11,339 nt of DNA from Candidatus Thorarchaeota archaeon (GCA_048882485.1 JBHLRP010000076.1:1-11339); one strand, 5' to 3'. Counted from the first letter of the stretch, positions 110-1,414 are shown. A program made the numbers and translations. The notes: generated from the sequence alone by a model not told the origin.

Positions 110-1414
110 ATGAAGGTCCCTGGAACTACCATGGACATAAGTCTCAATACTAACAGAATATTCGCTGTTGATCAAGGAGTCATGAAGCGAATCAAATACG
201 CTGGACGGACCTTCATGGAAGTACTCGAAGAGCTTCAAAGATTCGCATATCTAAGGGGATACAACGCTCCAACTACTATACTGAAGTTCATTCTCAAGCG
301 AATTGGCCTTCCTGATGTTGACGTGTTCCCATCTGAAGATGAACTGACGAAAGATGATATCGTTGAACTCTCGAAAGCACTTAATATTGTTGACAGCCTC
401 AAGGATGAATTCCTATCTGCGACGCCACAACCCATAGTGCCTGAGGATCTAATGAATTACACTGTCATAAAACCAAAGCAATCAGACGACTTCACCCTGG
501 AGGGTATAGCTCCAGATGACGCTATGCCTATAGATGTGACTCCTGATGCTCCTATTGAAGCAGAGGCTGCTGCAGAAACTCCCGCGTTTGATAGATCCTC
601 TATCTGGGATGATGTGCCTCAGAGTGAGGAAGCTGTGAAACTAATCTATAATTTCCATTGGGAGAATCTTCCAGTAAATACCCCCACACCCAGAACCAAA
701 TCCTATGAAGAAGAACCCAAGAAACCGAAGTTCATCTGGGATGATGAGGGTGAGTTGGAATCTTTGGAGGATGTCAGGCCAACTGAGGAGCCAGCTCCCG
801 AACTCCTCGGAGACTCCCATGAGCTAAAATCTCTGTTCCTTGGAGAAGCACAAGTAGGTGTGAAAAGCATACTCTTTGAATGCAACCTCAAAGAAGCAGA
901 AGATCTATCCTTTGTCTATCGAGATGTTGTTCAACACGATGAGAACCTTGTCGGGGTAAATGTCTGGACCTTTGAAGGCTCGCAGGCGGCAAGAATCCCG
1001 CGCCAGGAGTTCTTTACTGGTACGGGAATTGCAGTCATAGTGTATTCAGTAGCTGACAGATGGAGCTTCGATAGTCTTGATTTCTGGATTAAAGAACTAA
1101 CCAGTGTCTTCTTGGTTCCGCCTCCGATGATTATCGTAGGCAACAAGACAGACCTCAGAGACCATCCCGTATACGGTGAGGAGGATGAGTTTGAGCCTCC
1201 AGTTACCACAGCAGAGGGCGAAGAGTTCTGCAAGAAAATGGCAAATGAACTGGGTGAAAACGGTGAAGCTCATCCAATAGTGTTCTTGGAAACTTCCAGC
1301 ATTACAGGTGCAGGTATCTCTGACCTACTAAGCACGATGATTGATCTTTGGCTGACAAGTGAGAGACCCAGCATGCCCGCAATTGAATCGCACGTTATAA
1401 AACGCGAAATGTGA
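110..1414 (+). CDS. Multidomain protein: helical N-terminal domain, acidic/Pro-rich linker and C-terminal Rab/Ras-like small GTPase domain with degenerate catalytic motifs (putative pseudoGTPase)
   Basis: The C-terminal part aligns by eye with Rab-family GTPases: ELKSLFLGEAQVGVKS (beta1/G1), VNVWTFEGSQ (G3), FFTGTGIAVIVYSVADRWSFDSLDFWIKEL (cf. YYRGAxGxxxVYDVTxxxSFxxxxxWxxE), IIVGNKTDL (G4) and FLETSSITG (G5). The ORF track starts at TTG 74. In-frame ATG 110, with GGAG at 94-97, is more plausible, and ATG 131 is also possible. Stop codon TGA at 1412-1414. Confidence 0.9.
   Translation: MKVPGTTMDISLNTNRIFAVDQGVMKRIKYAGRTFMEVLEELQRFAYLRGYNAPTTILKFILKRIGLPDVDVFPSEDELTKDDIVELSKALNIVDSLKDEFLSATPQPIVPEDLMNYTVIKPKQSDDFTLEGIAPDDAMPIDVTPDAPIEAEAAAETPAFDRSSIWDDVPQSEEAVKLIYNFHWENLPVNTPTPRTKSYEEEPKKPKFIWDDEGELESLEDVRPTEEPAPELLGDSHELKSLFLGEAQVGVKSILFECNLKEAEDLSFVYRDVVQHDENLVGVNVWTFEGSQAARIPRQEFFTGTGIAVIVYSVADRWSFDSLDFWIKELTSVFLVPPPMIIVGNKTDLRDHPVYGEEDEFEPPVTTAEGEEFCKKMANELGENGEAHPIVFLETSSITGAGISDLLSTMIDLWLTSERPSMPAIESHVIKREM
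821..1354 (+). other. Rab/Ras-like small GTPase domain within the + strand CDS
   Basis: G1-like GEAQVGVKS 842-868, G3-like WTFEGSQ 965-985, G4 NKTD 1142-1153 and G5 ETSS 1289-1300 are in canonical order. There is no C-terminal cysteine prenylation motif; the protein ends HVIKREM. Confidence 0.88.

Follow-up and report, generated by a model that had tools for sequence, protein, structure and literature searches.

A conserved Rab-derived domain with pseudoGTPase motifs in Candidatus Thorarchaeota, encoded beside giant membrane proteins

PseudoGTPases have been studied mainly in eukaryotes. The domains of class i, such as CENP-M, the pG1 and pG2 domains of p190RhoGAP and the psGD domain of AAGAB, bind no nucleotide (PMC5593906, PMC12490416, PMC10211241), and in AAGAB the G4 and G5 loops no longer support guanine binding (PMC12490416). 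Rnd1/3 and the N-terminal domain of p190RhoGAP are dead in hydrolysis and nucleotide-bound (PMC10211241). In the Asgard archaea, a census of the Ras superfamily leaves divergent, taxon-specific groups uninvestigated (bioRxiv 10.1101/2024.02.28.582541), and full-text literature searches found no paper describing an archaeal pseudoGTPase family, including the one considered here. The gene in question lies on the plus strand at positions 110–1414 of the window, which is the entire 11,339-nt contig C76 of a 3.96-Mb Asgard metagenome-assembled genome (MAG) of Candidatus Thorarchaeota; nearly all named homologues of the MAG's proteins come from Candidatus Thorarchaeota. It encodes a protein of 434 residues in three parts, and by its sequence the last of these, a G domain, counts as a pseudoGTPase: the G fold is there, the catalytic and Mg motifs are lost, and the domain is under purifying selection. 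The protein as a whole is probably a cytoplasmic, Thorarchaeota-specific, Rab-derived adaptor or sensor for a system of giant membrane proteins, built from an N-terminal domain (N-domain), a linker and the G domain.

The open reading frame (ORF) as called runs from 74 to 1414, and the C-terminal 190 residues of its translation hold the G motifs. The family consensus starts at the ATG at 110, as does the profile match, and this ATG is taken as the start of the gene in preference to the TTG at 74. The N-domain, of about 105 residues, is encoded by 110–424; an acidic, Pro-rich linker, predicted to be disordered, by 425–814; and the Ras/Rab-fold G domain, with its degenerate phosphate and Mg motifs, by 815–1363. 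A first-pass annotation had described 821–1354 as a Rab-like domain, which corresponds to this third part, and the motifs it read there are exact in the translation. G1, the P-loop, is GEAQVGVKS (842–868). The G3 position has WTFEGSQ (965–985), without the Asp, Gly and Gln of DxxGQ, while G4 is an intact NKTD (1142–1153) and G5 a near-canonical ETSS (1289–1300). The protein has neither a signal peptide nor a transmembrane segment (the maximum hydropathy over 19 residues is 1.4), and the prenylatable C-terminal Cys of the Rab type is absent: the protein ends in HVIKREM, and only one of 121 family members has a Cys in its last 6 residues.

Sequence and structure matches both place the G domain in the Ras superfamily, with its small G-domain fold. 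The Pfam Ras profile matches it at an E-value of 9e-13 (48.5 bits against a cut-off of 21.6), and Pfam Roc matches it as well (E 4e-7). In the PDB, sequence matches to Rab9A, Ypt1, Rab11 and a Thorarchaeota Rab (7EZB) have E-values of 1e-9 to 2e-7. An AlphaFold2 model, built on 71 homologues, has a predicted local distance difference test (pLDDT) value of about 80 in the G domain, and Foldseek searches with this model return Rab, Rho and Cdc42 structures at E-values of about 1e-10 and TM-scores of 0.68–0.78 depending on the target; the Rab likeness proposed at first pass holds. The Pfam Ras match covers only profile positions 36–157. In the 35 Ras-family matches of the MAG, the profile match starts at position 1 in 32 cases, at 2 in two and at 8 in one, so a start at 36 marks the stretch of this domain with P-loop and switch I as objectively aberrant.

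Alignments show where the aberration lies. Against the Rabs of the PDB, Val stands opposite the P-loop Lys, and there is a 7-residue gap in helix 1 and switch I. In length, switch I falls 7 residues short of those in Rab9 and in a canonical Rab from the MAG, and Thr is missing from it, which leaves no G2; the first-pass annotation had noticed both features but put the shortening at about 6 residues, against Rab1. The canonical Rab of the same genome (182 residues, L016:147-695) carries GDGAVGKT, a switch-I Thr, WDLAGQ, NKVD and ESSA. Compared with it, the pseudoGTPase lacks the Lys, the switch-I Thr and the Asp, Gly and Gln of G3, and it has two insertions. One of the two is acidic, LRDHPVYGEEDEFEPP, and lies directly 3' of G4 (1154–1201), at the position of the Rho insert; it has pLDDT below 50 at residues 361–370 and is shared with a set of paralogues (group B) described below. 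By motif, then, the G1 Lys, the G2 Thr, and the DxxG and Gln of G3 are absent, and G4 and G5 are present. With Val for the P-loop Lys, no switch-I Thr and no DxxG or Gln, the G domain would no longer run a canonical Mg-dependent GTPase cycle. Canonical Mg coordination and gamma-phosphate sensing appear to be lost along with the catalytic Gln, and from these motifs we infer that catalysis and switching have gone too.

Homologues of similar length number 123 in a search of 5.8 billion proteins, among them 117 full-length orthologues (group A), almost all from Thorarchaeota. At the canonical Lys position the 117 have Val (91) or Ile (26) and never Lys, and at the position that follows they have Asn (72), Lys (35), Ser (9) or Gly (1). 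The P-loop glycines G257 and G262 and Ser265 are invariant in group A. An exact NKTD is shared by 113 of 121 homologues, ETS[ST] is conserved, and G3 reads W[TS]F in all the variants listed for groups A and B, with no DxxG among them. Against the closest orthologue for which DNA was available (81% identical), dN/dS is 0.10 in the G domain, 0.054 in the N-domain and 0.13 in the linker, and the gene is also covered, with few differences, by DNA contigs of two other public runs. One could consider that an ordinary Rab gene is decaying here, was altered by an accident in one lineage or was misread in sequencing, but nothing beyond the aberrant motifs themselves speaks for this, and the intact frame, the same substitutions in 117 orthologues, the low dN/dS and the contigs of the two other runs make it so improbable that it can be set aside. 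The first-pass view that this is not simple decay is therefore upheld, and so is its reading of a pseudoGTPase: the region of GVKS and WTFE is non-canonical in close and distant orthologues, in which neither GK[ST] nor DxxG was found, and the non-canonical G domain is conserved under purifying selection.

Two further observations concern the gene itself. Some genomes carry it as tandem duplicates (P0058 and P0110, at L004:10001-11257 with 11381-12628 and at L005:982-2238 with 2362-3609), and both tandem copies have GVGINS and WTF. In a sediment metatranscriptome run (X1), a 194-nt contig matches 872–1065 with 2 differences and an 81-nt piece matches 601–681, the rest of the gene being uncovered. 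These contigs from an RNA library are no proof of transcription, whether of the gene or of a near-identical one, but hint at it weakly.

The history of the degenerate P-loop can be followed with the help of the group B paralogues. When a profile of the N-domain was searched in 85 genomes of the same taxonomic family and 314 other genomes of the phylum, it found group B in 73 of the 85 and nothing in the 314. Group B proteins (420–530 residues; named "Rab family GTPase" or "ADP-ribosylation factor-like protein" at NCBI) have the same architecture of N-domain, acidic linker and Rab-like domain, and they share with group A the DxxG-less G3 and NKxD as well as the acidic insert after G4. They differ in that the canonical Lys is kept in all 121 (G1 is GVGK-x-[ST], with the Ser/Thr shifted by one residue), and G3 is WSFD[LE]AV. 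The copy in the MAG, on contig C41 (L014:4585-6153, minus strand), has 522 residues, a long acidic linker and the motifs GEAGVGKKS, WSFDEAV, NKTD and GTSC; it does not lie beside leucine-rich repeat (LRR) or giant genes, which are the neighbors of the group A gene, and within the taxonomic family few genomes lack group B. In a midpoint-rooted tree the two groups are reciprocally monophyletic (support 0.97).

The comparison with group B identifies Val263 as the residue at the canonical Lys position and puts Lys264 one position on, at a site that varies in the family. The first-pass annotation had left it between a Lys replaced by Val and a Lys displaced by one residue; the replacement stands, but there is no conserved relocated Lys. 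Lys at the +1 position occurs in the early-branching lineages of group A, including the present one, and Asn in the largest derived clade. Since this Lys is basal and was lost in most of group A, Lys264 is best read as an ancestral leftover at a dispensable site and not as a relocated catalytic Lys. Because group B keeps the canonical Lys but also lacks DxxG, the degeneration looks stepwise: DxxG and the canonical Mg-binding Ser were likely lost in the common ancestor, the Lys then likely changed to Val or Ile in group A, and the neighboring Lys was last to go, in most of group A. Group B, too, may be a GTPase of a non-canonical or pseudo kind. Separately, two proteins with an N-domain and a G domain (P0243 and P0271) carry GEEGVGMQS and GEDDVGMSS, with Met in place of the P-loop Lys. 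The P-loop Lys may have been lost more than once.

The same residues bear on a different explanation, in which the protein is a genuine if unconventional GTPase or switch. Its P-loop would be one residue longer, with Lys264 and Ser265 acting as Lys16 and Ser17, and the missing catalytic or Mg-binding residues would come from elsewhere in the protein or from a partner such as the LRR protein encoded next to it. Lys264 is conserved in the genus-level clade and ancestral in group A, the P-loop glycines, Ser265, G4 and G5 are near-invariant, and the N-domain has invariant Arg and Lys residues, all of which agree with such a scheme. However, 82 of the 117 members have another residue (Asn, Ser or Gly) at the position of Lys264, no G3 variant listed has an equivalent of the Asp, Gly or Gln of DxxGQ, and this clade has no switch-I Thr. 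In addition, the loss of G3 is common to groups A and B, some 240 sequences. A genuine switch is thus unlikely.

What the G domain of a pseudoGTPase of this kind still does can be judged in part from what has been kept. Because NKTD, ETS[ST], the P-loop glycines and Ser265 are near-invariant, retention of a nucleotide is slightly favored over its loss, and a guanine nucleotide may still be held as a static ligand or sensor, a possibility to which these motifs tip the balance slightly. Under the proposed mechanism the nucleotide would be bound in this way without any switching driven by hydrolysis. The retention of G4 and G5 would argue against a nucleotide-free pseudoGTPase of class i.

The other two parts of the protein are as distinctive as the G domain. 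The N-domain (residues 1–105) is modeled with confidence (pLDDT about 92–95 in the core) as three strands followed by three helices. Its invariant residues include R56, F57, Y59, R61, G62, K71, F72, K75 and R76 (P0001 numbering), many of them basic or aromatic. It has no match in Pfam or NCBIfam. As for its fold, the best Foldseek match in the PDB has an E-value of 0.2, a shape search of the ESM atlas gave TM-scores of at most 0.45, a feature search of the same atlas gave no usable match, and the VIA wide search reached no more than Z 6.4, with a de novo design and within the noise. A modeled fold without a match does not show that the fold is new. A profile search of 1.84 billion representatives found the N-domain in only 38 clusters, and those checked are all group A, group B-like or short proteins that consist of the N-domain only; the N-domain is lineage-restricted.

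The linker of 130 residues has 32 Asp or Glu against 10 Lys or Arg, 18 Pro, and pLDDT below 50. It nevertheless carries short conserved motifs, encoded on the plus strand: SIWDD (599–613), FHWENLP (653–673), TPTPRT (680–697) and KFIWDD (728–745). FHxEN[IL]P is found in 100 of 121 group A proteins and in none of 120 from group B, and the Trp-acidic pattern ΦΦW[DE][DE], of which this protein has two copies, in 89 of 121 against none of 120. A third motif, ERPSMP, is conserved at the C-terminus (1361–1378), again in group A (110/121) and not in group B (0/120). Both FHxENIP and the Trp-acidic motif also occur in an N-domain-only protein of the same locus.

This locus is built around the divergent pseudoGTPase gene. 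Six independent metagenomic contexts were examined, and five of them have the order giant LamG_3/DUF2341 gene, LRR gene, divergent pseudoGTPase gene, with LRR proteins of 207–255 residues; in the sixth (L007), which is cut by the contig end, the LRR gene is followed by a truncated gene of 385 residues. In the window, positions 1–109 hold one half of the AT-rich divergent intergenic region, which is 207 nt long. The other half lies by the LRR gene on contig C19, since positions 1–77 are identical to the reverse complement of C19 1–77 and the two contigs are thus adjacent in the genome. The LRR gene (L013:176-799; 207 residues, orthologous to those of the other contexts) starts at C19:176 and is followed by giants of 6,549 and 3,992 residues. 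It was in this AT-rich stretch, the promoter region between the divergent genes, that the assembly was interrupted.

A relative of the same genus, G375, has the locus on one contiguous 103-kb contig: a giant of 6,560 residues, the LRR gene (both minus), the pseudoGTPase gene (plus), giants of 3,991 and 5,505 residues, a DUF4332 gene (all minus) and a gene for an N-domain-only protein of 176 residues (plus). The 3,991-residue giant is the orthologue of the truncated one in the window, and the four giants of G375 amount to about 20,000 residues in about 60 kb. In the MAG the last three genes (giant, DUF4332 and N-domain-only) are on contig C16, where no end overlap with C76 was found; from the contiguous relative, the contig order would be C19 (reversed), C76, C16 (reversed). 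The N-domain-only protein of the MAG has 157 residues and no G domain, and its gene is divergent from the DUF4332/HhH gene and a giant LamG gene (L015:4853-5326, minus; L015:5469-6044, plus; C16). From the gene order in G375 and in the MAG, the locus is therefore made of two similar modules, each with two giants, a small cytoplasmic gene (LRR or DUF4332) and, divergent from these, an N-domain gene.

Downstream of the pseudoGTPase gene, genes for ESCRT-II (EAP30, Vps25), Vps4 and Snf7 lie at 2–8 kb in four contexts (L001:8487-11936, L004:16297-20118, L006:13933-17431 and L007:6062-9560), with MarR and AspRS genes between. A functional link to ESCRT was considered and rejected: the cluster is absent from that place in L002, L003 and L008, and EAP30 of the MAG is on contig C11, so that the proximity is specific to a clade.

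The giants are a family of their own. The one in the window is convergent with the pseudoGTPase gene (1524–11339, minus strand; 3,271 residues here, the N-terminus being cut by the contig end), and the others of the genome are at G000:C19:909-20558, at C19:20555-32533 and on C16 from 48227 to the contig end (L013+L017; L015/L018). In all, four giants of 6,549, 3,992, more than 3,271 and more than 5,373 residues share DUF2341/LamG_3 modules, and where N-glycosylation sequons were counted there are 1.2–2.2 per 100 residues. The giant in the window has a DUF2341/LamG_3 module, a long sequon-rich ectodomain, a transmembrane segment at about 2742–2798 and a cytoplasmic repeat tail at 1527–2741. The same plan holds in the three giants that could be read to their C-termini: a huge sequon-rich ectodomain, a single transmembrane segment near the C-terminus and a cytoplasmic tail of 240–430 residues made of helical repeats. 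The three tails are homologous to one another (E 1e-48 to 1e-145) and have no Pfam match above the cut-off and no PDB sequence match. The two giants with an intact N-terminus begin with a hydrophobic stretch like a signal peptide, and the fourth giant, on C16, runs off the contig end just as tail-like sequence begins.

Gene order of this kind would also suit a regulator. In such a scheme the protein would bind DNA through its N-domain and regulate transcription of the divergent LRR/giant operon, with the pseudo-G domain as its ligand sensor. Both N-domain genes are the sole plus-strand genes of the locus, each divergent from one small and two giant genes, the N-domain helices carry invariant basic residues, and the best of the weak structural matches include a sigma-54 RpoN domain, AP2 and RctB/HTH. 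These matches are all in the noise, though (Z no higher than 6.4, TM-score no higher than 0.45, Foldseek E no lower than 0.2), group B holds the same N-domain in an unrelated context, and a long acidic linker that bears Trp-acidic motifs is more in keeping with protein docking. This makes a transcription regulator a poor candidate, less probable even than an unconventional switch.

The reading of the protein as an adaptor for the giants is preferred because the neighborhood is fixed, the two N-domain proteins of the locus have docking-type motifs that only they share, and the tails of the giants are conserved. The protein would act on the cytoplasmic side of the giant type-I membrane protein system, possibly through the LRR protein and the tails. 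Several points weigh against this picture. Near-invariant G4, G5 and P-loop glycines are unexpected in a scaffold that is purely nucleotide-free, and there may be some nucleotide-dependent behavior. In this clade Lys264-Ser265 could mimic the K-S of a P-loop one residue longer. The N-domain's weak best structural matches include DNA-binding folds, and it may have a regulatory role. Finally, it is from the gene neighborhood that the protein's role as an adaptor and its candidate partners (the LRR protein and the tails of the giants) are drawn. A predicted complex of the full protein with the LRR protein scored 0.25 (mark 0.32), which is evidence neither way. As for fused pseudoGTPase–LRR forms, no homologue of 782–2,230 residues was found (weak evidence), and a match of the LRR protein's N-terminus to RA_2 (E 0.005) was below the cut-off, in a region that is too short.

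A more specific version, which is speculative and rather doubtful at present, is that the protein is an Mg-independent sensor of a guanine nucleotide, or of a guanine derivative, that docks together with the LRR protein on the tail repeats of type-I surface proteins of about 4,000–6,500 residues. If true, this would be an Asgard module of a receptor plus a small-G-protein adaptor, for outside-in signaling or for coupling giant adhesins to the cytoskeleton or to trafficking. It would be analogous to the receptor-GTPase-adaptor systems of eukaryotes and would have evolved independently of them. Even without it, the family suggests that the Asgard expansion of the Ras superfamily has already yielded stable non-catalytic derivatives. 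The end state is an unusual one, with the guanine pocket apparently kept and the phosphate/Mg site lost, and the order in which the motifs were lost can be traced. The fixed place in a giant-gene cluster of about 60 kb offers a testable cytoplasmic partner system that bears on how Asgard surfaces and protrusions are organized.

Among the systems already described, the Asgard Rab-like GTPases are close to this protein. Canonical ones such as Thor-Rab of SMTZ1-45 (PDB 7EZB, PMC10933270) and the L016 Rab of the MAG agree with it in fold and in the order of their elements at about 28% identity, and they have NKxD and a G5 of the ETS/ESSA type. Canonical Asgard Rabs are single-domain proteins of about 180 residues with GxxxxGKT, a switch-I Thr and DxxGQ, whereas the pseudoGTPase carries an N-domain and a linker in addition, has Val in place of the Lys and WTF in place of DxxG, and shows a shorter switch I and two insertions. 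Group B, which is also close, has the N-domain in common and keeps the P-loop Lys.

Of the pseudoGTPases of eukaryotes, those of class i are alike in that the G fold is kept, the phosphate/Mg and catalytic motifs are lost, and the domain is conserved as a non-enzymatic interaction module. The comparison with CENP-M and p190RhoGAP made at first pass therefore holds in concept. It fails in detail, however, since class-i domains bind no nucleotide, while here NKTD, ETS[ST] and the glycines of the P-loop have been retained; in addition, there is no sequence kinship beyond the superfamily, and the host here is an archaeon. Rnd1/3 and similar proteins may have a mode in common with the Thorarchaeota family, that of a nucleotide held as a static ligand without switching. 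Rnd1/3 and the N-terminal domain of p190RhoGAP keep the P-loop Lys and the Mg ligands, which this family has lost. The ROCO proteins (LRR-Roc-COR; LRRK2 and prokaryotic Roco) likewise pair an LRR module with a Ras-like domain. In the Thorarchaeota locus, however, the LRR is encoded by a separate, divergent gene, there is no COR match in Pfam, and the G domain set beside it is a degenerate one.

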